A DNA stretch of 64,000 nucleotides from Myxococcota bacterium (GCA_965228475.1 OZ245817.1:2528001-2592000), one strand, 5' to 3'; shown: positions 6,607-20,530, counted from the first letter of the stretch. Made by a program: numbers and translations. Notes: generated by a model not told the origin, from the letters alone.

Positions 6607-7737
6607 CTAGCGCTCGGGCTCCGGCGGCGGCGGCGGGACCCGGTTGAAGAGCGCCGCGACCGAGGGCACCTCCTGCGCAGCCACCCAGGCCGGCATGCCG
6701 ACCGCCCAGACCAGCGTCGTCGGAAGCACGCGCCCGTTCACGACGGCTTCTGCGAGCTGGGCCGGAGACAGCGGCCCCGAGGCGGCGCCGTTTTCGACCA
6801 CGTGCCAGACGGTGACCGCGGGCGGCGGAGGCGGCGGGGCCGCCTGGGGTGCGGGACCGGCCGGCCCGGGCGTTCCGCCCTGCACGCCCGGCGTCATGTT
6901 CTGGGCGTAGGCCATGCCCATGCCCAGACCGACACCCGCGGCCGCGAGACCACCCGCCGGATTCTCGGCCGCCGAGGGGATGGCGGCGCCGAGCTGATAC
7001 TGCTGGAAGTTCGTGAGGTCCCCGACCACGTTCATGCCCGTCCGCGCATCGATGGCCTTCTCGACCTCCGGCGGGAGCGAGATGTTCACGATGTAGAGCT
7101 GCGGGATGTCGAGGCCGTACTCATCGTCGATCTTCGTGACGACGCGCTGGCGAAGCTCTTCCGAGAGCTCCTGGTAGTTCTCCGCCAGGTCGAGGGCGGC
7201 GATCTCCGCGCTCGCCACGAGCTCCGCGAAGGTGTGATTGATGATCGAGCGCAGGAGCTCGCTGATCTCGTCGGCCTCGAAGTTCGCGTCCGTCCCGACG
7301 AGCTCGCGCAGGAGCGCCCGAGGGTCCTGGGCCTTCAGCGTGTAGGTGCCGAAGGCGCGCAGGCGGATCGGCCCGAAGTCGATGTCGCGCATCATCACCG
7401 GGTTCGGCGTGCCCCACTTGAGGTCCGGGATCTGCCGGGTGCTGACGAAGTAGACCTCGGCCATGAAGGGGCTGTCGAAGCCGTACTTCCAGCCCTGGAG
7501 CGTCGAGAGGATCGGCAGGTTCTTCGTCTCGAGCCGGTACTGACCGGGCTCGAAGACGTCGGCGATCTGCCCCTGGCGGACGAAGATGGCCGCCTGGCCG
7601 GGCCGCACGATCAGCTGGGCGCCGTACTTGATCTGGTTGTGGTAGCGCGGGAAGCGCCACACCAGCGTGTGACGGCTGTCGTCCACCCATTCGATGATGT
7701 CGATCAGCTCGCCGCGAAGCTTGTCCATGAAACCCAT
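6607..7737 (-). CDS. SPFH-domain protein (YdjI / virion-core-like type) with C-terminal GYF_2-like domain
   Basis: MGFMDKLRGELIDIIEW..LVWRFPRYHNQIKYGAQLIVR, KWGTPNPVMMRD..FGPIRLRAFG, Pro-rich linker, WHVVENG..SGP..TLVWAVGMPAW. Confidence 0.88.
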   Translation of the reverse strand: MGFMDKLRGELIDIIEWVDDSRHTLVWRFPRYHNQIKYGAQLIVRPGQAAIFVRQGQIADVFEPGQYRLETKNLPILSTLQGWKYGFDSPFMAEVYFVSTRQIPDLKWGTPNPVMMRDIDFGPIRLRAFGTYTLKAQDPRALLRELVGTDANFEADEISELLRSIINHTFAELVASAEIAALDLAENYQELSEELRQRVVTKIDDEYGLDIPQLYIVNISLPPEVEKAIDARTGMNVVGDLTNFQQYQLGAAIPSAAENPAGGLAAAGVGLGMGMAYAQNMTPGVQGGTPGPAGPAPQAAPPPPPPAVTVWHVVENGAASGPLSPAQLAEAVVNGRVLPTTLVWAVGMPAWVAAQEVPSVAALFNRVPPPPPEPER

Positions 7738-7755
7738 CGGTTGCGTCTCCCTATC

Positions 7756-7779
7756 CCTGATTCGTCGCCTGATTCGTCG
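7756..7779. repeat. 2 x 12-bp tandem repeat CCTGATTCGTCG
   Basis: Exact copies at 7756-7767 and 7768-7779 in the intergenic spacer. Confidence 0.9.
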
Positions 7780-7802
7780 CGCCGGTGCGTCGAGCCCCCG
7801 CG

Positions 7803-8642
7803 CTAGTCGAGCAGTTCCCAGATCAATCCGAGCACGCTGCGGCCGAACAGGCCGCCTCCCCCTCGGCGTTCGTGGCTCCAGTCCATCTGGAAGTCCGGTC
7901 GCGGGCGCTGCGGCGGCGGCTCGAGGGCCGGCTCCGGCGGCACGCCGCCCTGTTCGAGGATGAAGCCCGCGATGGCCTCGAGTTCGTCCGCGTCGAGCCA
8001 CGTGCCGTGGTCGTGGCAGTGGTCGAGGATCACGCCGGAGCACTTCCGGTAGTTCTTCCGGTGCATGAAGGCTTCGCAGACGGGGCACTTCCGGTACCGG
8101 ACGCTCTGCCGGTACGGGTTCGCACCGGCTCTTCGCGGTGCGCGCCCGGGCAGCTCCCCTTCCTCGGCCTTGCGTACGGCATCGACGGCTCGGGCCACGA
8201 GCTGTTCGAAGCGGTCTCCCGCCACCCAGAGCCCGTTGCAGTTCGGACACTCGTTGGCCGGGATGTCGCCGACCTGGCGCGAGGGCATGAGCCCGCCGCA
8301 ATCCGGGCACGGAAGCTCGTGCTCGCCCGCGACGACCGGCTGGGGGTCGAAGCCGACCCCGCAGGCCGTACAGAAACGGGAATCTTCGGCATTGCGGGCG
8401 AAGCACTCGGGACAGAGCAGCGAGAGCGCGCCCTCGCGGACGACGGGCGCCGCGCAGTAGTCGCAGACCTCCGCGTCCTCGCCGAGTCCGGCGCCGCAGG
8501 AGCCGCAGCGCACGACCCGGGCATCGATCGGCGCATGGACCTCGTTCGCGACCTTCGCGCCGCACGGGCAGGAAAGCTCCGGATCCGTCACGTGCGTGAC
8601 GTCGAACTGGCGGTGGCACGTTCCGCAGGCGACCAGGCGCAA
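7803..8642 (-). CDS. multi-zinc-ribbon protein (double zinc ribbon plus two zf-TFIIB-like modules)
   Basis: Ten Cys/His pairs (CGTC, CPC, CGSC, CDYC, CPEC, CTAC, CPDC, CPNC, CPVC, CHDH); CPNCNGLW and CHDHGTWLDADEL are zf-TFIIB-type. TTG start at 8642 chosen for its GGGAGA SD. Confidence 0.8.
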   Translation of the reverse strand: MRLVACGTCHRQFDVTHVTDPELSCPCGAKVANEVHAPIDARVVRCGSCGAGLGEDAEVCDYCAAPVVREGALSLLCPECFARNAEDSRFCTACGVGFDPQPVVAGEHELPCPDCGGLMPSRQVGDIPANECPNCNGLWVAGDRFEQLVARAVDAVRKAEEGELPGRAPRRAGANPYRQSVRYRKCPVCEAFMHRKNYRKCSGVILDHCHDHGTWLDADELEAIAGFILEQGGVPPEPALEPPPQRPRPDFQMDWSHERRGGGGLFGRSVLGLIWELLD

Positions 8643-8852: not shown

Positions 8853-9935
8853 ATGAGACCCGCGGCTCGCAGCGCGGCGCGCATCACCCTCGCGGGCCTG
8901 GCCCTGCTGTCGACCGGCTGCCAGCTCGTCGGGCCGCGCACGGTCGACATCGGCCGGGTTCACTACAACACGGTCATCCAGCGCACCGGGAACGAGCAGA
9001 TGCTGCTCAACCTGGTCCGTCTGCGGTACAGCGACACGCCCTTCTTCCTTCAGGTGGCGAGCATCTCCACGGCCTTCGAGTTCAAGACCGGGGCGAACGT
9101 GGGCATCGGCGTGAGTCCCGGGACGTACCTGTTCGGCGGCGACGTCGAGCTCGCCGAACAGCCGACCGTCACGTACACGCCGCTCGAGGGCGAGCAGTTC
9201 GTGAAGAGCGTGCTCACCCCGATCGACCTCGCGACGGTGCTCCTGCTCTATCACTCCGGCTGGGCCATCGACCGGCTCCTGCGCATCACCGTCCAGGAGA
9301 TGAACGACGTCCCGAACGCGCCGAGCGCATCGGGCCCGACGCCCAAGACCGCGCCCGAGTACGAGACGTTCCTGGGCGTCGCCGAGGCCCTCCGAGAGCT
9401 CCAGTCGCGCGGCGACATCTCCCTGGCCGGCCGCGCCGGCCCGTCCGGCACCGAACTCCAGCTCACCTTGGAGCCCGACGCCGTCGGCAGCCCCGCTCAC
9501 CGGGCCTTCGCTTCGGGTCTCCGGCTCGATCCGGCCCTCGCCCAGTACCGTTTGGTGACGGACGCCGGCCTGCGGGAGCCGGATCAGATCTCGGTCGTCA
9601 CGCGCTCCCTGATGGCGTCCTTTTTCTACGTGTCGCAGGGCGTCGAGGTCCCGGAGGAGGACGAAACCGCCGGCCGGGTCAACACGACGCGCACGGCGGC
9701 CGGCGAGCGCTTCGACTGGAACTTCATCCAGGACGATCTTTTCCGGGTCCACCAGGCCGAGCACCTGCCGGACCAGGCGTCCGTGAGCACCCATTATCGG
9801 GAACGGTGGTTCTACATCGCCGACGCCGACCTCGAATCCGAATCTACATTCGCGTTGCTCATGCAGCTCTTCTCCCTCCAATCGGGAAACGTGCCCTCGA
9901 GCGCCCCCCTGCTGACCCTCCCGGTCAGCCGCTAG
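8853..9935 (+). CDS. conserved hypothetical lipoprotein
   Basis: AGGAG SD, LSTGC lipobox; QMLLNLVRLRY.DTPFFL and PTVTYTPLEG..F motifs look like a conserved uncharacterised family. Confidence 0.75.
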   Translation: MRPAARSAARITLAGLALLSTGCQLVGPRTVDIGRVHYNTVIQRTGNEQMLLNLVRLRYSDTPFFLQVASISTAFEFKTGANVGIGVSPGTYLFGGDVELAEQPTVTYTPLEGEQFVKSVLTPIDLATVLLLYHSGWAIDRLLRITVQEMNDVPNAPSASGPTPKTAPEYETFLGVAEALRELQSRGDISLAGRAGPSGTELQLTLEPDAVGSPAHRAFASGLRLDPALAQYRLVTDAGLREPDQISVVTRSLMASFFYVSQGVEVPEEDETAGRVNTTRTAAGERFDWNFIQDDLFRVHQAEHLPDQASVSTHYRERWFYIADADLESESTFALLMQLFSLQSGNVPSSAPLLTLPVSR

Positions 9936-10002: not shown

Positions 10003-10083
10003 GAAAGGGCCGTCGGGGGCCTTTTGCCTCCTACTCAGCTTTTGCGCGGAAACCGACCGAGCTGTCCGGTTTAGGGGGATTGT

Positions 10084-11937
10084 ATGCGCGTGCCTCATCG
10101 ACCTCTGTTCATTGCTTTCGCTCTCGTTGCCATGCACTTTCAGATCGGTGTGGGCTGCGCAGAGCCGCTCACCATCAACGTGACCTCACCGAGCCACGGC
10201 GAGTTCTCGACCGCCAGCTCGATCACGATCACCGGGTCCGTGACGGGCGTGCAGCCGGCCAACGCCGCGCTGACCATCAACGGCTCGCCGGTGACGGTCG
10301 CCGGGAACTCGACCTTCTCCGCGAACGTCGCCCTCGATGGCAACATCGTGTTCAACCCGTTCCTGCTCGAACTCACGAACACCAACACGAACGTCACGAT
10401 CCGCGATCGGATCGTGGTGATCGCCGGTGAGTCGGTCGCGGACGGAGCCCTGTCCGAGGACAGCATCGCGCTGCGCCTGAACGACTCGGGCCTCGACTCC
10501 ATCGAAGGGGTCGTGAGCAGCCTGGTCAACTTCGACCTCGCCACGCTCCTCCCGGTCGGGACGGCGGTGATCAACGACTTCTGCGCGATCGACGGCGGCT
10601 TCCTCGGCTGCCTCGGCAGCGTGGACGTCGTGATCGCCAACCCGACGCCGAGCATCTCGGGCTTCTCGATCGACATCGACTCGCTGGTGAACGCCGCCGC
10701 GGGCGACGTCACGATCAACGACCTCGACGTCCGGGCGCAGATCAACGGCTCGGGCATCGCCCCGAGCTGCGGGCTCCGCCTCACCGCGAACTCGCTCGAC
10801 ATCCTCGGGGACTACACCCTCGAGCCCGACGCTCTTGGCGACGCGATCGACGTGAACCTCATCACGTCGCCGCCGGGCATCGTGTTCTCGGGCTTCAACA
10901 GCGAGTTCACGAGCGGCCTGTGCGACTTCCCGCTGATCGGCAGCCTGATTCAGCTGATCATCGGCGACGTCCAGCCGATCGTCGTGAACGGCCTCCGGGA
11001 CTTCCTGGACGATCCGGACGGGGCCGGCCCCGCGGACGCCCCGCTCGCGGAAGGCATCGAGACGGCTCTGGCCGAGATCTCGATCGCCGGCCCGATCGGC
11101 GAGGGCCTCGGCCTGAACCTCGAGGCGCCGCTGTTCGCCGTGGACGAGGACAACGCGGGCATCACCCTCGGGTCCGATGGCCGCATCACCTCGACGCCGT
11201 GCACCCCGCCGCCGAACGCGCCGGACCTGCTGGCTTCCCTGGCCGTGCCGGAGCCGTTCCCGAGCTTCGGGGCGCTCACGCCGGGCGGCCTGCCCTACGG
11301 CCTCGGCATCTGCGTCTCGACGGCGGCCTTCAACCAGCTGCTGAAGGCCGAGACCGAGTGCGGCCTGCTCCAGACCACGCTGACGGAGCTCGACCTCGAT
11401 GGGCCCGGCGGCAACCCGCCGCTGCCCATCACCGCAGCCGTCCTCGCGACGTTCATCCCCGAACTGGCCAACGCCGACCCGTCGACGCCCTTCGCGATCA
11501 ATCTGATCCCGACCCTGGCGCCGGCCCTGACCGGCAACCCGGGGCCTGCGGGTGAGATTGCCGAGCTCCGGCTTGGCGGTCTGGTCGTCGAGGTCGTCGA
11601 GACCATCGGAGGCCAGAAGATCATCGACGGTCAGGTCGACTTCCGCGCCGGCCTGGACTTCAGCTTCGACAGCCAGACCAGCGAGCTCGTGCCGACCATC
11701 GGCGCGGTGGGCGCCGGGGACATCAACGTCGACATCGTGAACAACACGGTGATGACGAACCCGACCCAGCTCGCCTTCATCCTGGAGATCCTGCTGCCGG
11801 GCCTGCTGCCCACCCTGGGCGACTCGCTCGGCTCGTTCCCGCTGCCGGAACTGCTGGGCCTCCAGATCCAGGGCGTGTCCGTCGAGCAGAACGGCGAGTT
11901 CGTCTCGCTCTTCGCCGACCTGGTCCCGACTCCCTAG
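10084..11937 (+). CDS. secreted/lipoprotein with N-terminal Ig-like domain and two BPI/LBP (TULIP)-like domains
   Basis: Signal ending GVGC; Ig-like ITITGSV..LTINGSPV; SIALRLNDSGLDSI, GSLIQLI, VSTAAFNQLL..CGLL and GSFPLPELLGLQIQGVSV..FVSLFADL mirror BPI landmarks. Confidence 0.7.
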   Translation: MRVPHRPLFIAFALVAMHFQIGVGCAEPLTINVTSPSHGEFSTASSITITGSVTGVQPANAALTINGSPVTVAGNSTFSANVALDGNIVFNPFLLELTNTNTNVTIRDRIVVIAGESVADGALSEDSIALRLNDSGLDSIEGVVSSLVNFDLATLLPVGTAVINDFCAIDGGFLGCLGSVDVVIANPTPSISGFSIDIDSLVNAAAGDVTINDLDVRAQINGSGIAPSCGLRLTANSLDILGDYTLEPDALGDAIDVNLITSPPGIVFSGFNSEFTSGLCDFPLIGSLIQLIIGDVQPIVVNGLRDFLDDPDGAGPADAPLAEGIETALAEISIAGPIGEGLGLNLEAPLFAVDEDNAGITLGSDGRITSTPCTPPPNAPDLLASLAVPEPFPSFGALTPGGLPYGLGICVSTAAFNQLLKAETECGLLQTTLTELDLDGPGGNPPLPITAAVLATFIPELANADPSTPFAINLIPTLAPALTGNPGPAGEIAELRLGGLVVEVVETIGGQKIIDGQVDFRAGLDFSFDSQTSELVPTIGAVGAGDINVDIVNNTVMTNPTQLAFILEILLPGLLPTLGDSLGSFPLPELLGLQIQGVSVEQNGEFVSLFADLVPTP

Positions 11938-11959
11938 GGGCCCGCGTCTCCGAGCCTGC

Positions 11960-12007
11960 GCCCCCGTGACGGGACGATCCCAGATCGTCCTCGTCACGGG
12001 GGCTTTC
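11960..12007 (+). terminator. intrinsic terminator-like hairpin
   Basis: GCCCCCGTGACGGGACGATC-CCA-GATCGTCCTCGTCACGGGGGC followed by TTTC. Confidence 0.75.
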
Positions 12008-12096
12008 TCGTTCTGGCCCGGCGGTTTCTGGTAGGATCCCGGGTGGCGAAGGGGCCACCGCCGCGCGTCCGACCGGGCGCCGGCCGGAAACCGCCC

Positions 12097-15000
12097 ATGC
12101 GCCTCCTCCTGCCCCTCCTGCTGACCCTGTTCGCTCTTCCCGCCCCGGCCCCCGCGGCGCCCGATTCGGGCGAGCTCGTCTATCTGAACGAAGGCAACCG
12201 CCTGCGGCGCTTCGACGTCGACACGCTCGGCCAGCGGCTTCCCGCCCAGGACGTCCTCGTCCAGCGCGAGGGGCCCGAGGGCCCGGGCGGAGGTGACGCC
12301 GGCGCGACCCCGAACGGGAACGACATCAACGGGATGATCTGCCCGTTCCCGGACGGAAGCGGGCGCTTCGTCGCCGGTGAGGACACGCACCAGCCGACGC
12401 CGCCCGCAGGCTGGGGGATCTACGCGCCCGACGGCTCTCTGGTCGGCAAGATGACCCCCACCTATCCGACCGTCTCCCCCGAGACCTTCGGCTGCGGGTT
12501 CAACTCCGAGGGCCTCCTCTTCACGACCTCGACCGGCGACCCGGGCATCGGCTTCGGGAACGGGCAGCTGATCCTCTGGTTTCCGCCCTACGAGGGCTTC
12601 CCCGGCCCCCCGGGCGCCTACCCGGAGACGAACGCCCGGAGCGAGAACTTCTGCGTCCTCGCCAACGACATCGGCACCGCCACGGGCGTCGCGATCGACG
12701 ACGACGACAACGTCTACGTCGCTTCGGGCGGACTGCTCCGCGTCCTGCGCTTCGCGCCGCCCTTCCCGACCGGGCTCGGCCCGGGCGAAGGCTGCGAAGG
12801 CACCGACCCCCAGGGCTCCCCGATGGCCGACGCCGTGAACCGCTCCATCGCCGTCCAGGGAAACCTGGCCTCGCTCTACAGCACGTTCACGGGCCTCGCG
12901 ATGGCACCGAACGGGAACCTCTACGCAGCGAGCATCATCAACGGGACGATCGGCGAGTTCCGGCTCGACACGGGCGACCCCTCCCAGGCCTCGACCTTCG
13001 TCCGTCACATCCTGCTGCCCACGGACCCGCCCTTCCCGTTCGAGACCGGCACGCCCCAGGGCCTCGCGGTGGGGGGCGACGGCAGCGTCTACTACGCCGA
13101 CATCGACCTCGTCGGCACCTTCCCGAACCTCGGCCCGGGGCCGGACGGAAAGCTCCGCCGGATCCGCTTCGACGGGAGCGGTGACCCGCTCCCGCCCGAA
13201 ACGATCCGGGACGGACTCGCCTTCCCGGACGGCGTGGCGGTCCTCCCGGGGCATCTGCCCTCGAAGGAGTGGCGCAGCTACGCGGGCGGTCCGGAGCGGC
13301 TCTTCCACAACCCCGACGAGTTCATCCTCGGCGCGGCCCAGGCCGGCTCGCTCGTGCAGCGCTGGCGCTTCGAGACCGACGCCATCATCACCGCTTCGCC
13401 CATCGTGGCGCGCCTCGACGTTCCCGGAGAGGGCCCGCAGTCGATCGCGTTCATCCAATCCTGGGACGGGAACGTCTACGCCGTGCGCGTGAAGGACGGG
13501 ACCGAACTCTGGCGGTTCGCCACGGAGCCCCAGCCCGGGGCGAACTTCCCGAACACCGGCTCCGCCCACGTCGAGAACGTCGACGGGCGCGAAACGGTCT
13601 TCATCGCCAGCGGACACCTGGCCTACGCCCTCGATGCGATCACCGGCGAGGAGATCTGGCGGTTCACGGCCGGCACGGGCTGCCGTGACGAGAACGGCGT
13701 GCCGCCCGGTGCGTGCACGATCGGAGGGGAGCGCAACGAGATCGAGACCTCGGCCATCGTCGCGGACGGGAAGGTCTACTTCGGGATGGACGTGAACGAC
13801 ACCGTGGGCGGCAAGGGCGGCTTCTTCGCCCTCGAGACGACCACCGGGCACCTCGCCTGGTTCTTCGACCTCGAGTCCGGGAAGACCTGCCGGCCCTTCC
13901 CGGGCGATGAGATCGACCAGTTCGACGCCTACCACGACGCCGCCGATCTGAACCTCCCGGCGGACTTCTTCAGTACGCGGCCGGGCTGCGACTTCCCGCG
14001 CAGCCAGACCGGCTGCGGCAACGTCTGGGCGACGCCCTCCTACGACGCGGGCCGCGACACCCTCTACGTCGCGGCGAGCAACTGCGACACGCGCACCGGG
14101 CCGGGGGACGACCCGCGAAAGCCCGACCCGCCGATGCCCCCCTTCGACCTCTCGGTCTTCGCGATCACGGCGCAGGGGACCCCGACCTGGCGCTACCGCT
14201 CCTACGCCGTCGACAACGAGGACTTCGCCTTCGGCGCCTCGCCGAACCTGTTCTCGATCGACGTGCCGGGCCTCGGCTCCGTCGACGTGCTCGGCATCGG
14301 GCAGAAGGACGGCCACTACCGGGTGCTTCCGCGCGACGGCGTGAACCCGCTGAGCGGGATCGACTGCACCGTGCTCGACGCCAACGGCGTCCCGGGCTGC
14401 GTCGACACCAACCTCGGCGGAGCCCCGTCCGAGCCGGCCGACTTCCCCGAGTTCCCCTTCTGGGACACCCAGGTCGTCCCCGGCGGCCGCGCCGGGGGCG
14501 TGATCCTCACCGCCGCCGCCAATCCGGTGGACCGGCGCATCGTCTTCAGCACGGCGCCGGGCTTCGACCCGCTGGCCCCTCAACAGCCGACGCTTCACAT
14601 CCTCGACATGGACACGGGCGACGTCGTGTGGGACGCGAGCCAGCTGCCCGTCCAGGACTCGGTCACCGAGAGCGCGAGCTTCGCACCGACGAGCACGGTC
14701 CCGGGCCTCGCCTTCTTCGGGACGGTGCCCTTCGACCTGCTCCGGGTGATCGCGACGGAAGACGACGACCCGCAGGAGGTCTTCGTCTATCCGCTTTCGG
14801 GCTTCCCGATCTCCGGAGCGGCCTCGGGCGCCATCGTCGTGGACGGCACCGTGCTCGTCGGTCACGGCATCGGCGTCCGCGGGAACCCCCAGGACCAGGG
14901 GACCCTGACCTCGAACATCCCCTCGGCCCTCGTGGCGCTGTGCGCCCCCGGCACGCCGGGCTGCGCGCCCTGCAACGACGGCATCGACAACGACCTGGAC

Positions 15001-16152
15001 GGCCTCGTGGATGGCGACGACTCCGGCTGTACCGGCCCCGGGGATCTGAGCGAGCGCCCCGATTGCATGGACGGCCTCGACAACGACCACGACGGCCTCG
15101 ATGACTGGCCGAGCGACCCCGGCTGCCGGAACCGCCTGCCGCGCTCCGTCGAGAGCCCCGCCTGCGACGACGGCATCGACAACGACGGCGACGGCGGGAT
15201 CGACCGCGACCCGGCGACCGGCGACCCCGACCTCCAGTGCGAGGCCGCCTGGGACGAGAGCGAAGGCGAGAGCAGCGGCCCGAGCTGCGGGCTCCTGGGC
15301 ATCGAAGCGCTGGCCGCGCTCCTCTGGCTCCGCCGGCCGCGTGGACGGCGCCGCGCAAGCGCCCGGCTCGTCGCGGGCGCGACGCTCGGACTGCTTGCGG
15401 CCGGGCTGCCGGCCGGCCTGGCCGGAGCGGCCCCCATCCCCGTGAGCGTCGGCGTGACGCTCGGAGTCGAGTTCCCGGGCGCGACCCTCTTCACCGGCCC
15501 GGAACAGTTCGGCACCGTCACCGTCGATGCCACGGCCCGGACGGTGTCCCTGCCGGCGGGGGTCCTCTCGCTCTCGGGCACGGTCGCCGGCCAGGTCGGC
15601 TTCACGCTCCGAAACCCGGCGGGTACGTTCCGGCCGGGCGGTGCCTCGGCGGGCACGTGCCCCGGGCCGCTCGGCGGCCAGGGCGCCTGCATCCTCGGCG
15701 CCGCCGTCGGAGGCGGCTTCGGCGGGACGCTGCCGCTCTCGGGCACGGTCCGGATCCTGTCCGCGTCGGCGTCGCTCCCGGCGACGGCCATCGGCGCGGC
15801 GCGGACCGCCTCGGCCGCGGGGAACGTCCTCCAGGGAGCGCCCTTCACGACCCGGACCGCGGCGGTCACGACCACGGCCAACGGTTTCTGGACCACCGCC
15901 CGCGGCAACCTTCCGGCAGGCTGGCTCACCGCTGCCGGCAACCCATCGGCACCGCCGGTCCAGAGCCTTCTTCTCGTGAGCCCGGTCCACGTCCAGCTCG
16001 CCGGGAGTGCATCCCCCGTGCCCGTTTTCGTGACCCTGTCGATTCGTGCGATACCCGAACCCGCCGCTGGGGCACTCATGCTGTGCGGCTGGCTCGCGCT
16101 CATGGCTAGCCTCCGGTGGCCGATGCTATGGTCCGCCGTTCTGCGAAGATGA
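12097..16152 (+). CDS. large surface (poly)protein: NHL/SMP-30-like propeller, PQQ-type propeller, Cys/Asp repeats, internal Cys-Gly anchor, internal signal peptide and PEP-CTERM domain
   Basis: Signal MRLLLPLLLTLFALPAPAPA; GLAMAPNGNLY and TPQGLAVGGDG blades; WRFETDAIITASPIV and GNVWATPSYD PQQ-type blades; CGLLGIEALAALLWLRRPRGRRR at 15286; IPEP at 16051. Alternative GTG start at 12043. Confidence 0.8.
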   Translation: MRLLLPLLLTLFALPAPAPAAPDSGELVYLNEGNRLRRFDVDTLGQRLPAQDVLVQREGPEGPGGGDAGATPNGNDINGMICPFPDGSGRFVAGEDTHQPTPPAGWGIYAPDGSLVGKMTPTYPTVSPETFGCGFNSEGLLFTTSTGDPGIGFGNGQLILWFPPYEGFPGPPGAYPETNARSENFCVLANDIGTATGVAIDDDDNVYVASGGLLRVLRFAPPFPTGLGPGEGCEGTDPQGSPMADAVNRSIAVQGNLASLYSTFTGLAMAPNGNLYAASIINGTIGEFRLDTGDPSQASTFVRHILLPTDPPFPFETGTPQGLAVGGDGSVYYADIDLVGTFPNLGPGPDGKLRRIRFDGSGDPLPPETIRDGLAFPDGVAVLPGHLPSKEWRSYAGGPERLFHNPDEFILGAAQAGSLVQRWRFETDAIITASPIVARLDVPGEGPQSIAFIQSWDGNVYAVRVKDGTELWRFATEPQPGANFPNTGSAHVENVDGRETVFIASGHLAYALDAITGEEIWRFTAGTGCRDENGVPPGACTIGGERNEIETSAIVADGKVYFGMDVNDTVGGKGGFFALETTTGHLAWFFDLESGKTCRPFPGDEIDQFDAYHDAADLNLPADFFSTRPGCDFPRSQTGCGNVWATPSYDAGRDTLYVAASNCDTRTGPGDDPRKPDPPMPPFDLSVFAITAQGTPTWRYRSYAVDNEDFAFGASPNLFSIDVPGLGSVDVLGIGQKDGHYRVLPRDGVNPLSGIDCTVLDANGVPGCVDTNLGGAPSEPADFPEFPFWDTQVVPGGRAGGVILTAAANPVDRRIVFSTAPGFDPLAPQQPTLHILDMDTGDVVWDASQLPVQDSVTESASFAPTSTVPGLAFFGTVPFDLLRVIATEDDDPQEVFVYPLSGFPISGAASGAIVVDGTVLVGHGIGVRGNPQDQGTLTSNIPSALVALCAPGTPGCAPCNDGIDNDLDGLVDGDDSGCTGPGDLSERPDCMDGLDNDHDGLDDWPSDPGCRNRLPRSVESPACDDGIDNDGDGGIDRDPATGDPDLQCEAAWDESEGESSGPSCGLLGIEALAALLWLRRPRGRRRASARLVAGATLGLLAAGLPAGLAGAAPIPVSVGVTLGVEFPGATLFTGPEQFGTVTVDATARTVSLPAGVLSLSGTVAGQVGFTLRNPAGTFRPGGASAGTCPGPLGGQGACILGAAVGGGFGGTLPLSGTVRILSASASLPATAIGAARTASAAGNVLQGAPFTTRTAAVTTTANGFWTTARGNLPAGWLTAAGNPSAPPVQSLLLVSPVHVQLAGSASPVPVFVTLSIRAIPEPAAGALMLCGWLALMASLRWPMLWSAVLRR
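14971..15240 (+). repeat. three Cys/Asp-rich coding repeats (CxDGxDNDxDGxxD), putatively Ca-binding
   Basis: CNDGIDNDLDGLVDGDDSGC, CMDGLDNDHDGLDDWPSDPGC, CDDGIDNDGDGGIDRD...DLQC. Confidence 0.85.
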
Positions 16153-16161
16153 GGGTCCGCG

Positions 16162-17985
16162 ATGAACATCCTGGGAATTTCCGCCTACTACCACGACAGT
16201 GCAGCCTGCCTGGTGCAGGACGGCCGCATCGTGGCAGCGGCCCAGGAGGAACGCTTCACCCGCAAGAAGCATGACGCGGAGTTCCCCGCCCATGCGATGC
16301 ACTACTGCCTCGAAGAAGCGGGGATCGGCGTCGAGGACCTCGACCTCGTCGCCTTCTACGACAAGCCGCTCCTGAAGTTCGAGCGCATCCTCGAGACCTA
16401 TCTTTCCTACACGCCGCGCGGCTTCAAGCTCTTCATGATGGGCTTGCCCGTCTGGCTGAAGCAGAAGCTCCATACCCCTCGCGAGCTCGACAAGGGCCTC
16501 GGGGGCAAGTACGACGGCCGCTACGTCTTTCTCGAGCACCACGAGTCCCACGCCGCGAGCGCTTTCTTCCCCTCCCCCTACGACGAGGCGGTCATCCTGA
16601 CCCTCGACGGCGTCGGCGAGTGGGACACGGGCAGCATCGCCGTCGGCCGCGGCAACAAGATCGAGATGCTCGAGGAGCTGAAGTTCCCCCACTCCCTCGG
16701 CCTGCTCTACTCCGCCTTCACCTACTTCACCGGCTTCCGGGTGAACAGCGGCGAGTACAAGCTCATGGGCCTGGCGCCCTACGGCGAGCCGATCTACGCC
16801 GACCGCATCCGGGACAACTGCCTCGACATGAAGGAGGACGGCTCCTTCCGCATGAACATGGACTACTTCGCCTACACGCGGAAAGACGTCATGACGTCGG
16901 AGAAGATGGACTCTCTCTTCGACGGCCCGCCGCGGACGGCCGAGACCGAGATCACCCAGCGCGAAATGGACATCGCGGCTTCGATCCAGGTCGTGACCGA
17001 AGAGATCATGCTGCGCATCGCGCGGCACGCCCACCGCAAGACGGGGATCGACAACCTCGTGATGGCCGGTGGCGTGGCGCTCAACTGCGTCGGCAACGGG
17101 AAGATCCTGCGCGAAGGCCCGTTCAAGAATCTCTGGATCCAGCCGGCCGCGGGCGACGCCGGCGGCGCGCTCGGCGCGGCCCTCTTCACCTGGCACCAGC
17201 TGCTCGACAACCCCCGCGACAACGGGGGCAAGGACTCCCAGACCGGATCCCTCCTCGGCCCCCAGGCCAAGGAAGCCGACATCCGCTCCTTCCTCGATTC
17301 GGCGGGCGCCGTCTACCAGCACTACGACGAGGAAGAGAAGCTCTGCGACGCCGTGGCCGAGCTCATCGCCACCGAGAACGTCGTCGGGCACATGGGCGGA
17401 CGCATGGAGTTCGGACCCCGCGCCCTCGGGAGCCGCTCCATCCTCGGCGATCCGCGCTCGCCGAAGATGCAGTCGGTGATGAACCTGAAGATCAAGTTCC
17501 GCGAGTCCTTCCGGCCCTTCGCTCCGGCCGTCCTCCAGGAGGACGTCCACGAGTGGTTCGACATGAAGCCCGGCCAGGAGAGCCCCTACATGCTCCTCGT
17601 CGCCCCGGTCCGCGAGGACAAGTGCAAGCCCGTCGACGACAGCAAGAGCGGGCTCGACAAGCTCAAGCAGGAGCGCTCGGTGCTGCCCGCGATCACCCAC
17701 GTCGACTACTCCGCGCGCGTGCAGACCGTCGACCCGGAACGCTACCCGCGCTTCTACGGCATCCTCAGCCGCTTCAAGGCCAAGACGGGCTGCGGCGTGA
17801 TGATCAACACCAGCTTCAACGTCCGCGGCGAGCCGATCGTCTGCACCCCGGCGGACGCCTACCGCTGCTTCATGGGCACCAACATGGACGCCCTGGTGAT
17901 CGAGAACTTCGTCCTGCGCAAAGAAGACCAGCCGGACGCCGACGTCGACCGCGAGGCCTACCTCGCGAAGTTCGACCTGGACTAG
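16162..17985 (+). CDS. O-carbamoyltransferase (NodU/CmcH/SxtI family)
   Basis: MNILGISAYYHDSAA..AAQEERFTRKKH, EHHESHAAS, DGVGE, GEYKLMGLAPYG, AGGVALNC, EFGPRALG, KFRESFRPFAP, NTSFNVRGEPIV. Confidence 0.95.
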   Translation: MNILGISAYYHDSAACLVQDGRIVAAAQEERFTRKKHDAEFPAHAMHYCLEEAGIGVEDLDLVAFYDKPLLKFERILETYLSYTPRGFKLFMMGLPVWLKQKLHTPRELDKGLGGKYDGRYVFLEHHESHAASAFFPSPYDEAVILTLDGVGEWDTGSIAVGRGNKIEMLEELKFPHSLGLLYSAFTYFTGFRVNSGEYKLMGLAPYGEPIYADRIRDNCLDMKEDGSFRMNMDYFAYTRKDVMTSEKMDSLFDGPPRTAETEITQREMDIAASIQVVTEEIMLRIARHAHRKTGIDNLVMAGGVALNCVGNGKILREGPFKNLWIQPAAGDAGGALGAALFTWHQLLDNPRDNGGKDSQTGSLLGPQAKEADIRSFLDSAGAVYQHYDEEEKLCDAVAELIATENVVGHMGGRMEFGPRALGSRSILGDPRSPKMQSVMNLKIKFRESFRPFAPAVLQEDVHEWFDMKPGQESPYMLLVAPVREDKCKPVDDSKSGLDKLKQERSVLPAITHVDYSARVQTVDPERYPRFYGILSRFKAKTGCGVMINTSFNVRGEPIVCTPADAYRCFMGTNMDALVIENFVLRKEDQPDADVDREAYLAKFDLD

Positions 17986-17988
17986 CCG

Positions 17989-18435
17989 ATGGCGAAGATG
18001 GTCGAAATCGATTGGAACCCGGATCCGGGAACCCTGCGCCAGTTCGGCTGGGTGGCTCTCGTGGGCTTCTCGCTGATCGCCCTTCTGGCGCACCAGGAGT
18101 GGCTGATCTTCGCTTTCGGCCTCGGCGATGCGCGAATGAAGGTGGTCGTGGGCCTGCTCGCCGTCGGCGCCCTCGCCGCCCTGATCGGCCTCGTCTACCC
18201 GAAGGCCAACAAGCCCCTCTTCATCGGCCTGACGCTCCTGGCCTTCCCGATCGGGTTCGTACTCTCGTACGTCATCATGATCACCCTGTTCTTCGTGATC
18301 ATCGCGCCGATCGGGATCCTCATGCGCCTCGCCGGACGGGATCCGATGGAGCGTGAGATCGACCCGAACGCCGAGAGCTATTGGACGCCGGCCAAACCCG
18401 CGCCGCCCAACAGCCGCTACTTCCGCCAGTTCTAG
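17989..18435 (+). CDS. SxtJ-family membrane protein
   Basis: LRQFG, several TM segments, PIG..MRLAGRDPM..SYW..RQF; follows the carbamoyltransferase. Confidence 0.85.
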   Translation: MAKMVEIDWNPDPGTLRQFGWVALVGFSLIALLAHQEWLIFAFGLGDARMKVVVGLLAVGALAALIGLVYPKANKPLFIGLTLLAFPIGFVLSYVIMITLFFVIIAPIGILMRLAGRDPMEREIDPNAESYWTPAKPAPPNSRYFRQF

Positions 18436-18476
18436 GGCACCACGCCCTCCCCAAACTTCCACTCCGGGAGCCCGAC

Positions 18477-18674
18477 ATGTCCGATCAAGACGCGAAAGAC
18501 TTCATCGCCGAAGCCAAGGAAGAGCGCAGCGGGCTCGTTGGCGAGTTCACCGACTTCCTGCGAGAGAACAAGAAGTGGTGGCTCGCGCCCATCATCGTCT
18601 CGATCCTGGCCCTGGGGGCTCTCGTGCTCCTCGGCGGGACGGCCGCGGCGCCCTTCATCTACACGCTCTTCTAG
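18477..18674 (+). CDS. DUF5989 / SxtK-like small membrane protein
   Basis: FLRENKKWWLAPII...AAPFIYTLF hallmark. Confidence 0.9.
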   Translation: MSDQDAKDFIAEAKEERSGLVGEFTDFLRENKKWWLAPIIVSILALGALVLLGGTAAAPFIYTLF

Positions 18675-18754
18675 AGCCGGTCTCAAAACTGTGAAGCGGG
18701 CTCGGCCCTCCTGGGCGGGCCGGACCCGCAGGAGATTTCTGAGACGGGCTCTAG
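18671..18754. mobile_element. MITE-like element: imperfect terminal inverted repeats bounded by CTAG
   Basis: CTAG-AGCCGGTCTCAAAA...TTTCTGAGACGGGCT-CTAG with an internal palindrome; no coding capacity. Confidence 0.5.
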
Positions 18755-18779
18755 CCGCGGGAGCGGCCCGGAAGGGCCG

Positions 18780-19427
18780 CTAGCGAGCTTCGTCCGGGAA
18801 GCAGGCGTCGCGCTGGTGCCGGTAGGCGGCGATCAGCCAGTCGCGCGTCTTTTCCCGGGCCACGGAGAGCTTGCCCGGCATGACGGGGCCCCCCGCGATC
18901 AGCAGCGTCAGCGGACGCGTGGCGTCGAGCACGAGTTCGGGAGCCCGCTTGAGCTGGGCCAGGCTCGGGTGCCGGACCGGCTCGCCTCCGAAGACGAACA
19001 GGTAGCTCGCGACGGCTCGGCGGCCGTTCGCGCGGTCGATGATGGTCTGGATCGGGAGCGTCTTGCCGTCGACCTCGACGTGTTCGACCTCCCGCTGCCC
19101 GGCCTCGAACTGCCCGAGCAGGATGCCCGGCGGACGCGTGTAGAGCCGGATCGCATCGAAGGAGCGCACCAGCGCTCCGCGCAGCTCGACGCCCCGCTCG
19201 CCGATGTCGATCTCCGCCTGGGTCCACTGGGGCACGTCCTCGTCGTACCTCTCGAGGCGTTCGGAAAAGGTCCGGGTGAACGGCAGGCCCTTGATCTCGA
19301 GCGCCCGCTCGGGGTCCTGGCAGTCATCGTGGCGGCGCACCTCGAAGCGTGCGACCGCCAGCGGCGCGAGCAGCACCCCGACCGCCACGAGAAGCCACGG
19401 CGCGTGGCGGCCCGACAGATGGATCAT
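18780..19427 (-). CDS. exosortase-associated EpsI-family protein
   Basis: ATGA overlap with the exosortase, single N-terminal TM, periplasmic domain with VASYLFVFGG. Confidence 0.6.
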   Translation of the reverse strand: MIHLSGRHAPWLLVAVGVLLAPLAVARFEVRRHDDCQDPERALEIKGLPFTRTFSERLERYDEDVPQWTQAEIDIGERGVELRGALVRSFDAIRLYTRPPGILLGQFEAGQREVEHVEVDGKTLPIQTIIDRANGRRAVASYLFVFGGEPVRHPSLAQLKRAPELVLDATRPLTLLIAGGPVMPGKLSVAREKTRDWLIAAYRHQRDACFPDEAR

Positions 19428-20530
19428 GCCAGGGCTTCGCGCAGGTTGTCGCGGTCCGACACCATGAACAGGACGAGCAGCACGAGCCAGAACGTCGCGA
19501 CGCCCGAGGCACCGTGGAACGCGGTGTCGAGCAGGTCCGAACCGAACCAGTGCGCCGCGACGACCAGCAGGAAGACCCGCAGCGTGTTGCAGAGCAGCGC
19601 CAGCGGCCACGCCGCCACCAGCAGCGCCAGGCGGCGCCAGTTCGAGCGCGCATAGCGAGCGAGGATCAAGGAGAGCCCGACCGCGGCGTAGAGGGTCGAG
19701 AAGCCGCTACAGGCGTCGGCGACCAGGAAGGTCTCCTTCGGCAGGACCAGGAGCGTGTCCTCGCGAAGCACGGGGATCCCCACGAACCGGATCATGGGCT
19801 CGACGAGCTGCGCCGTCCAGCTGCGCAGGAACAGGTGCGCGCCCATCATGTTCGGGATCGGGATCATGAACACGCCGAGCAGGAGCGGCATCGCGAGCAT
19901 CCGCGTTCGACGGATGCCGAGCAGCAGCAGCGAGAGCCCGGGCAGCAGAAAGACGAAGCCGACCGCAGCCAGGTACGCGGTCCGCAGCGCGAAGTCCGCC
20001 GAGGCCGCCAGCAGCGCGGGTACGACCAGCGCCAGGCCCCAGAGTGACCCCTCGGGCCGCTCGGGATGCGGATCTGCGCGCAGCGCGTTGGCCGCGAGGT
20101 AGGCCATCAGAAAGGGCATGAAGAGCCCGTGCCCGTTCTCCCAGATGTTCCCGGTCCACTTGTCGTAGAGGAAGACGAAGGTCGGCGCGAAGAAGACGAC
20201 CAGCAGCACCAGGGCCAACCAGACCATCGGCGAAATCGAGCGGGCTGGGACGCCGAAGATCGGTGCGTCCGCGGGCGTCTCCTCGACCGGGTCCCACCAC
20301 AGGCGCCACGCCGCCACGCCGATCGCCGTTCCCACGCCGGCGATCAGTTTCACCACGAGCTCCTGGGGCACGAAGGGACTGACGGCGATGGTCACGCCGG
20401 CGACGGCGGCGAGCACGAGAGTCCGGAGCGGTTCCTGGCGCAGCAAGGGACTCCCTGGGATGAAGGGCTCGGGCCGGGGACATCGGGAAACGCCGCCACG
20501 GCCCGACCCGGCCGCGCGGAGCTCGCGCAC
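19424..20530 (-). CDS. exosortase/archaeosortase family protein (EpsH-like)
   Basis: GHGLFMP, MIPIP, VLREDTLL, VADACSG (catalytic Cys), CNTLRV (Arg), FHG (His); multi-TM; start uncertain. Confidence 0.9.
   Translation of the reverse strand: MRELRAAGSGRGGVSRCPRPEPFIPGSPLLRQEPLRTLVLAAVAGVTIAVSPFVPQELVVKLIAGVGTAIGVAAWRLWWDPVEETPADAPIFGVPARSISPMVWLALVLLVVFFAPTFVFLYDKWTGNIWENGHGLFMPFLMAYLAANALRADPHPERPEGSLWGLALVVPALLAASADFALRTAYLAAVGFVFLLPGLSLLLLGIRRTRMLAMPLLLGVFMIPIPNMMGAHLFLRSWTAQLVEPMIRFVGIPVLREDTLLVLPKETFLVADACSGFSTLYAAVGLSLILARYARSNWRRLALLVAAWPLALLCNTLRVFLLVVAAHWFGSDLLDTAFHGASGVATFWLVLLVLFMVSDRDNLREALA

Follow-up and report, generated by a model that had tools for sequence, protein, structure and literature searches.

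The window analyzed here, a 64,000-nucleotide stretch of a Myxococcota bacterium genome (GCA_965228475.1 OZ245817.1:2528001-2592000), carries a gene that profile searches identify as a bacterial sequence relative of human BPI and LBP. Its 617-residue product, P0001 (ORF 10084-11937, + strand), almost certainly adopts the BPI-like double-TULIP fold, to judge from its structural model, and very probably binds lipid. The BPI-related part is the C-terminal 490 residues. P0001 is probably a lipid-anchored envelope protein, and we put at about 0.5 the probability that it takes up hydrophobic lipids from the surroundings and passes them on to the membrane or an uptake system of its own cell. Bacterial double-TULIP proteins are already known (TipA, DUF4403); the present one belongs to a large unnamed family with a sequence link to BPI. 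The gene and its parts are laid out as follows.

10073..10079 (+): purine-rich, ribosome-binding-like stretch, read directly from the sequence 5' of the ATG
10084..11937 (+): gene for the BPI-like double-TULIP predicted lipoprotein P0001; ORF with 533 homologues
10084..10158 (+): signal peptide, residues 1-24, plus Cys25, the predicted lipidation site; family conservation, Gly at -3 making the box atypical
10165..10428 (+): Ig-like beta-sandwich spacer, residues 28-115
10453..11103 (+): N-terminal TULIP barrel, about residues 124-340
10582..10611 (+): hairpin with a putative Cys167-Cys176 disulfide; Phe173 at a conserved hydrophobic position
10768..10923 (+): Cys229 and Cys280, putative family-specific N-barrel disulfide, not that of BPI
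11011..11037 (+): D-P-D-G-x-G-P-x-D loop interrupting a long N-barrel helix; conserved, putative calcium site
11104..11931 (+): central sheet and C-terminal TULIP barrel, about residues 341-616; PF02886 match and BPI alignment
11960..12013 (+): intrinsic-terminator-like hairpin and T-run, from folding energy against shuffles

The hairpin 3' of the stop codon (20 pairs, -54.1 kcal/mol, z -7.1, 0 of 200 shuffles as stable) has no second copy in the genome and is the likely end of the P0001 transcript; a sigma-70 scan gave no promoter-like site. An antisense ORF of 1934 aa (10186-15990) without a Pfam match was taken as a shadow frame. P0001 matched no family in NCBIfam, and a plasmid collection gave no match.

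The P0001 model comprises two tubular helix-and-meander domains and a joining central sheet, the pseudodimeric TULIP arrangement of BPI, and its tandem barrels match BPI across 436-441 residues, at 13-16% identity and an rmsd of about 6 A to BPI-type structures. The preliminary description of this gene had expected exactly such tandem barrels and a profile-level match to the BPI superfamily, and both were found. Single-sequence phmmer of P0001 against PDB sequences did not find BPI (best E 0.93), so that the resemblance required profile and structure tests. BPI was the top PDB match of the first-round profile A1, at a marginal E of 0.044 over BPI 272-449, and again of A3, at a still marginal 0.0075. 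A3 holds the 70 TULIP-only rows left when PF02886-chosen rows are taken out of A2, a profile that reached LBP at E 5.8e-11 and was discarded as circular, 3 of its 73 rows having been chosen with PF02886. A3 was searched across 301 genomes of the phylum, and distant matches were picked by this bacterial profile alone, then fetched; the resulting second-round profile, A5, has 86 rows without near-duplicates, 33 of the 70 A3 rows and 53 new ones. After these two HMMER rounds on bacterial sequences only, the significant PDB matches of A5 were confined to BPI 2-453 (E 8e-21) and mouse LBP (E 6e-19); the next match stood at E 0.87, and CETP, P47, OrfX and YceB were unmatched in the same search. The top score among 1806 reversed or shuffled members was 18.1 bits, against 77.8 for BPI. 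A5 thereby gives a BPI-type link by conventional tools over more than 450 aa; conventional sequence links also define the CETP/BPI family, which has been placed in the last eukaryotic ancestor (PMC5507252).

At the level of sequence profiles, the chain of homology from P0001 to BPI is transitive. A long-stalk subfamily of 21 proteins is recovered completely by the close-family profile, each at E<=5e-8, the close-family and long-stalk profiles align at 99.96% over 451 columns, and the long-stalk profile by itself matches BPI at 1e-8; the N-barrel profile of the close family, A4, used alone left BPI unmatched. In Pfam, P0001 matches LBP_BPI_CETP_C (PF02886) at residues 411-613 with E 0.013 and 15.4 bits, against a gathering cut-off of 23. 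PF02886 is found in 13 of 73 members at E<=0.1 and above cut-off in 0 of 301 phylum genomes, and the N-terminal counterpart PF01273 is unmatched at E<=0.1 in P0001 and in the 73 members. A Glucodextran_B match at 31-85 (E 3.3e-5, below cut-off) falls within the Ig-like sandwich, residues 28-115, as the preliminary description had claimed when it placed an Ig-like domain after the signal. Its further claim, of four BPI landmarks in the same order as in the human protein, also proved real: the motifs lie at residues 127-140, 285-293, 408-433 and 575-614, and the profile aligns BPI 2-453. We nevertheless class P0001 as a BPI-like double TULIP and not as BPI/LBP proper, because it fails the Pfam cut-offs and lacks the BPI disulfide and the cationic half.

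Charge and cysteines set the family apart. Mature P0001 has 70 D+E and 11 K+R, a K+R share below that of 99.9% of proteins longer than 300 aa in its genome; the N-barrel has 32 D+E against 4 K+R and is net-negative in 70 of 70 aligned family members; the preliminary description had already noted the strong acidity, unlike cationic BPI. The N-half of BPI has two Lys/Arg-rich hairpins, which presumably form its LPS-binding tip. A5 aligns one of them with the Cys167-Cys176 hairpin and the other with the loop that precedes Cys229, where P0001-family members have conserved hydrophobic residues instead (position 173 is hydrophobic in 100% of A1). The N-half of BPI is the bactericidal, LPS-binding part, and killing depends on its cationic character (PMC6293271). 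Given the acidic surface of P0001, a neutral or zwitterionic cargo, or binding bridged by cations, is more plausible than a BPI-type attack on LPS. The family has Cys columns at 167, 176, 229, 280, 373 and 426, and across 70 rows their co-occurrence suggests three disulfides: 167/176 (both in 47, neither in 22, a single one in 1), 229/280 (both in 63, single in 7, with C229 in 70 of 70) and 373/426 (both in 41, neither in 22, the first only in 7). In BPI/LBP proper a disulfide links elements 5 and 6 of the N-barrel (PMC5507252); its counterpart is absent here, the BPI cysteines aligning with non-Cys positions in both registers obtained. D310, D312, G315 and D318 are conserved in 100% of A1 within a D-P-D-G-x-G-P-x-D loop, opposite a gap in BPI, and this loop is a possible calcium site.

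Export of P0001 is indicated by an N-terminal signal peptide, from sequence pattern and conservation, and lipidation at Cys25 is likely on the same grounds. Of 108 family N-termini, 107 have a Cys behind the hydrophobic signal, and the consensus there is L-G-x-x-C. The lipobox of the preliminary description is atypical: the conserved Cys is there and the broad PROSITE-type lipoprotein pattern fits P0001 and 63 of 102 members; the canonical box [LVI][ASTVI][GAS]C fits 9 of 107 members and excludes P0001, which has Gly at -3. Gly at -3 occurs in 33 of 125 lipoprotein-like N-termini of the host genome, against 23 canonical ones; the L-G-x-x-C signal, commoner there than the canonical box, is possibly a lineage-specific lipobox. 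The same genome has 3 Lgt and 2 LspA matches, and LpxC is present. Acidimicrobiia members have canonical lipoboxes by eye. Many relatives carry long N-terminal extensions before the TULIP module, and the distant Myxococcota members include long-stalk, giant and C-terminally tagged forms. Their tails are rich in Cys, hydrophobic residues and Arg; 2 of 13 tagged-looking distant members scanned match MYXO-CTERM, weakly and both under cut-off. The MYXO-CTERM tag sorts proteins to the surface (PMC11980579).

We found 533 homologues at E<=0.001 among 7994 candidates, and 1823 homologue cluster representatives, some of them reached via the Ig domain only. Close relatives are mostly labelled as Myxococcota or Deltaproteobacteria MAGs, and no eukaryotic source names occur among the homologue matches listed. 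With A1, a relative was found in 39 of 151 genomes of the P0001 class, which may be UBA9160; with A3, scoring at most five candidates per genome, in 161 of 301 genomes of the phylum, Myxococcota by record titles. Beyond the phylum, relatives occur in 25 of 81 genomes of the class of a Binatia carrier. The Acidimicrobiia class of one carrier yielded 2 of 151, namely the query genome itself and one weak match, and the phylum of that carrier 1 of 201, again the query genome, a search that doubles as a specificity control. NCBI labels of Klebsiella, Spirochaetales and Halioglobus, and the Ilumatobacteraceae label of locus L015, were dropped as range evidence, being in conflict with synteny or tree position. 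With L015 left out, as its synteny matches Myxococcota loci, 18 of 80 relative loci are labelled Acidimicrobiia or Actinomycetota. The 7 Acidimicrobiia loci in a quick, midpoint-rooted tree form one clade (SH-aLRT 100) within a Myxococcota group (97-99), for which a single transfer into Acidimicrobiia is the simplest reading. Neither LpxC nor Omp85 was detected in 4 of 4 Acidimicrobiia carrier genomes tested, of unstated completeness, a Binatia control being positive for both, and in such carriers the family protein would therefore face the outside.

Clade members from Acidimicrobiia share a 240-aa C-terminal domain with a paralogue of the host genome (L002:9493-10227, and loci L065-L084), all-beta, with the conserved motif E-W-R-H-R and without a Pfam match. 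When folded as a check for a TipB-like adaptor, the L002 domain was all-beta, and its best match, Bdellovibrio Bd1399, was weak (E 1e-6, TM 0.34, rmsd 10.6); it could be a fused adaptor or a ligand-binding domain.

The host genome (one 5.0-Mb contig, 96% complete) has 11 family members, and a congeneric genome (89% complete) has one. Six of the 11 paralogues lie in three head-to-head pairs on contig C1:

1016700-1020963: pair at locus L003
1528555-1532822: pair at locus L004
4200995-4205345: pair at locus L005

Every pair combines an alpha-clade gene (clade support 100) with a beta-clade gene (98), so duplication likely acted on the pair as a whole. The pairs are absent from the congeneric genome, and the three beta-type paralogues were unmatched in one metagenome scan, a weak search with two patterns only. 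Eight of the ten extra copies sit in 10-kb intervals at or below the 17th GC percentile, and the P0001 gene at the 42nd. A TetR gene lies beside 3 of 8 paralogue loci, against about 4% of genes; we gave this little weight, as the P0001 gene has no TetR beside it and two of the three TetRs are homologues that were carried along with the duplicated pair. Those homologous TetR genes adjoin two of the three head-to-head pairs. Behind one paralogue a co-oriented gene encodes a GINT1-like beta-propeller and PKD protein (L001:10026-12608, +), which a fatty-acid desaturase and a TetR gene adjoin, and right after the L003 pair lies a large RHS-repeat protein with SpvB-like and FG-GAP domains (L003:12265-18933, +), truncated where the locus ends.

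Across the window and 80 loci, neighbour clusters recur among close relatives only, and no family-wide partner gene or small conserved neighbour was found. In the congeneric locus L009 the wider synteny is kept and the P0001 gene stands at the same place, and both immediate neighbours are missing, so that the upstream gene (8853-9935) and the downstream gene (12097-16152) were rejected as obligate partners. The former (+) encodes a 360-aa predicted lipoprotein without Pfam or NCBIfam match, the latter (+) a secreted protein of 1351 aa that combines a PQQ-like beta-propeller with an acidic double-disulfide repeat. Farther out, and kept in L009, are a likely surface-polysaccharide modification cluster at 16162-20416 (genes for a carbamoyltransferase, an SxtJ-like membrane protein and a membrane peptide of 65 aa, oriented convergently to an exosortase gene and its partner) and, at 6607-8642 (-), an SPFH/Band 7 protein that also has a GYF_2 domain and lies downstream of one with several zinc ribbons. 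The sole operon-like context seen for the family is in Binatia-like loci (L026, L043-L045, L048, L049), where 1200-aa members with a 600-aa N-terminal extension are embedded in a conserved series of genes for large secreted proteins (clusters C5, C9, C6, C26).

The host has many enzymes of lipid degradation. By a heuristic gene call in which each cluster was named from one scanned representative, its largest protein clusters are SDRs (63), acyl-CoA dehydrogenases (51), enoyl-CoA hydratases (44) and AMP-binding enzymes (35), followed by luciferase-like monooxygenases (26), P450s (25) and thiolases (14). A FadL-family search of this genome was unmatched, and DUF1302 gave 6 matches. Binatota have been described as degraders of alkanes and fatty acids (PMC8262859).

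On the reading we prefer, P0001 would be exported, lipidated at Cys25 and sorted to the outer membrane; its surface exposure in this diderm is suggested by analogy with relatives. In BPI the termini lie in the central sheet (PMC6791001). Both ends of the P0001 module are placed there in the same way, so one Ig domain is predicted to hold the module by its waist and leave both barrel tips free. The disulfide-stapled, hydrophobic tip loops of the N-barrel, in place of the cationic loops of BPI, may dip into a lipid surface and let acyl chains enter the barrels, and the cargo could feed the large beta-oxidation apparatus of the host. Following the reasoning of PMC6791001, the Ig spacer is not long enough to span a periplasm that measures 20 nm or more, and where a cell has a single membrane, bridging is excluded as its role. 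A lipid capture or transfer protein at the envelope, as first proposed for this gene, fits the predicted anatomy, the distribution and the host genome. Several observations stand against a capture role: the gene shares no conserved operon with genes of uptake or catabolism, neighbours recurring among close relatives only; lipid-catabolic genomes of the same class often do without the gene, 39 of 151 carrying it; and few Acidimicrobiia have it (2 of 151, one of them the query genome), so that it is not a general part of that lifestyle.

Other roles were weighed against the same evidence. Rather unlikely in our estimate is that P0001, as an outer-membrane lipoprotein, faces the periplasm, where it would move or buffer lipids belonging to the cell itself, or clear toxic hydrophobic molecules, with a hand-off to another transporter as proposed for DUF4403 and YceB. 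Such a protein would suit the lipoprotein signal, in which Asp is not among the common +2 residues, the diderm host (LpxC), the model put forward in PMC6791001 and the retention of the gene at the same place in the congeneric genome; it sits poorly with members in genomes without detectable outer-membrane markers, with the patchy presence in the class (39 of 151), with the lack of a conserved partner gene and with the long stalks and MYXO-CTERM-like tails of relatives. Another alternative is a surface receptor or adhesin whose barrels bind lipid for recognition of droplets, particles or cells without net transfer, the paralogues differing in specificity. The 11 divergent paralogues of the host genome, the PKD, repeat and beta-sandwich domains fused in some of them, the head-to-head pairs and an Ig spacer that resembles adhesin repeats speak for this role, which we consider quite improbable all the same, since most carriers have just one copy of the core gene, no gene for a signalling partner is linked to it, and the tip loops are conserved, not variable, in the close family.

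Least probable to us is a predation factor that strips or disrupts prey membranes in the manner of TipA or BPI. TipA is induced in invasion and disrupts bilayers (bioRxiv 10.1101/2025.09.09.675085), and the wider family occurs in 161 of 301 genomes of a phylum to which predators belong. The acidic N-barrel argues otherwise, as killing by BPI needs a cationic N-half (PMC6293271), and so do the predicted anchoring of P0001, which would not be released, the lack of a conserved small adaptor gene beside it, and the occurrence of the close subfamily in Binatia and Acidimicrobiia. The possible predation role raised in the preliminary description hence finds no support for the P0001 subfamily, which is acidic, predicted to be anchored, without a TipB-like neighbour and present in those two groups. 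Binatia and Acidimicrobiia are not known to be predators. The Binatota paper (PMC8262859) does not mention predation.

Envelope lipid capture would make P0001 a candidate for the surface step of lipid uptake in uncultured lipid-degrading lineages, namely its own class, Binatia and some Acidimicrobiia, the host genome having no FadL match. As an acidic, anchored BPI relative, it is a natural control for LPS binding by BPI and LBP. If the family were the eukaryotic source, the two-barrel extracellular lipid carrier would have begun as a bacterial surface scavenger, and the host genome would have radiated a BPI-like repertoire of 11. We regard as tentative, and on balance unlikely, the idea that eukaryotic BPI/LBP/CETP/PLTP have their bacterial sister group or source in the Myxococcota-centred family, a surface lipid-scavenging lipoprotein having passed to the eukaryote stem, where the anchor was lost and a cationic LPS-binding tip gained later. 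A 186-member, mostly Bacteroidota cluster in the ESM Atlas, with PF02886 on 57% of members, may lie closer to eukaryotes. Transfer to the eukaryote stem has already been proposed for myxobacterial sterol synthesis. The direction of descent is reserved here, as it is for the myxobacterial sterol genes (PMC10202945).

Published bacterial TULIPs are too divergent to fix a common origin with the eukaryotic ones, the best link in Levine 2019 being one by HHsearch, at 63% over 167 residues (PMC6791001). For the P0001 family, present in about half of the sampled phylum genomes, two rounds of plain HMMER are enough to reach BPI and LBP end to end, which brings a rooted BPI-family tree within reach and makes the question of the origin of that family directly testable. 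The surprise is limited, as TipA is solved and the Bacteroidota cluster of the ESM Atlas carries PF02886. Our literature search, in which subscription journals were thinly covered, found no paper describing the family; the TipA homologue lists (bioRxiv 10.1101/2025.09.09.675085, Fig. EV1/EV2) may include members.

Several known systems resemble P0001 in part. YceB/DUF1439 and P47/OrfX have the TULIP fold in common with it. DUF4403 (PF14356) has been predicted to be a full-length pseudodimeric TULIP lipoprotein of diderm bacteria, tied to BPI by the HHsearch link alone and built with a linker of 20-25 aa (PMC6791001), where P0001 has an Ig domain; PF14356 was unmatched in P0001, in 73 members and in the genome. 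TipA (Bd2538, with TipB, Bd2539) is a solved bacterial BPI-like double TULIP that co-purifies with phospholipids. It is released into the prey, forms homodimers by way of a hairpin and shares an operon with its adaptor; the same paper notes fused double TULIPs elsewhere (bioRxiv 10.1101/2025.09.09.675085). TipA was not among the PDB matches of P0001 or its profiles in any of the sequence or structure searches. P0001 is set apart from TipA, as described, by its predicted anchor, its Ig spacer and the lack of a conserved adaptor gene, no TipB-like operonic beta-sandwich adaptor being found across the window and 80 loci and the terminator-like hairpin following right after the gene. Compared with BPI, LBP and CETP (PDB 1ewf, 1bp1, 4m4d, 2obd; PF01273 and PF02886), P0001 stays below the Pfam cut-offs and adds a predicted lipid anchor and an Ig spacer to a strongly acidic module with three other co-varying Cys pairs and a D-P-D-G loop.
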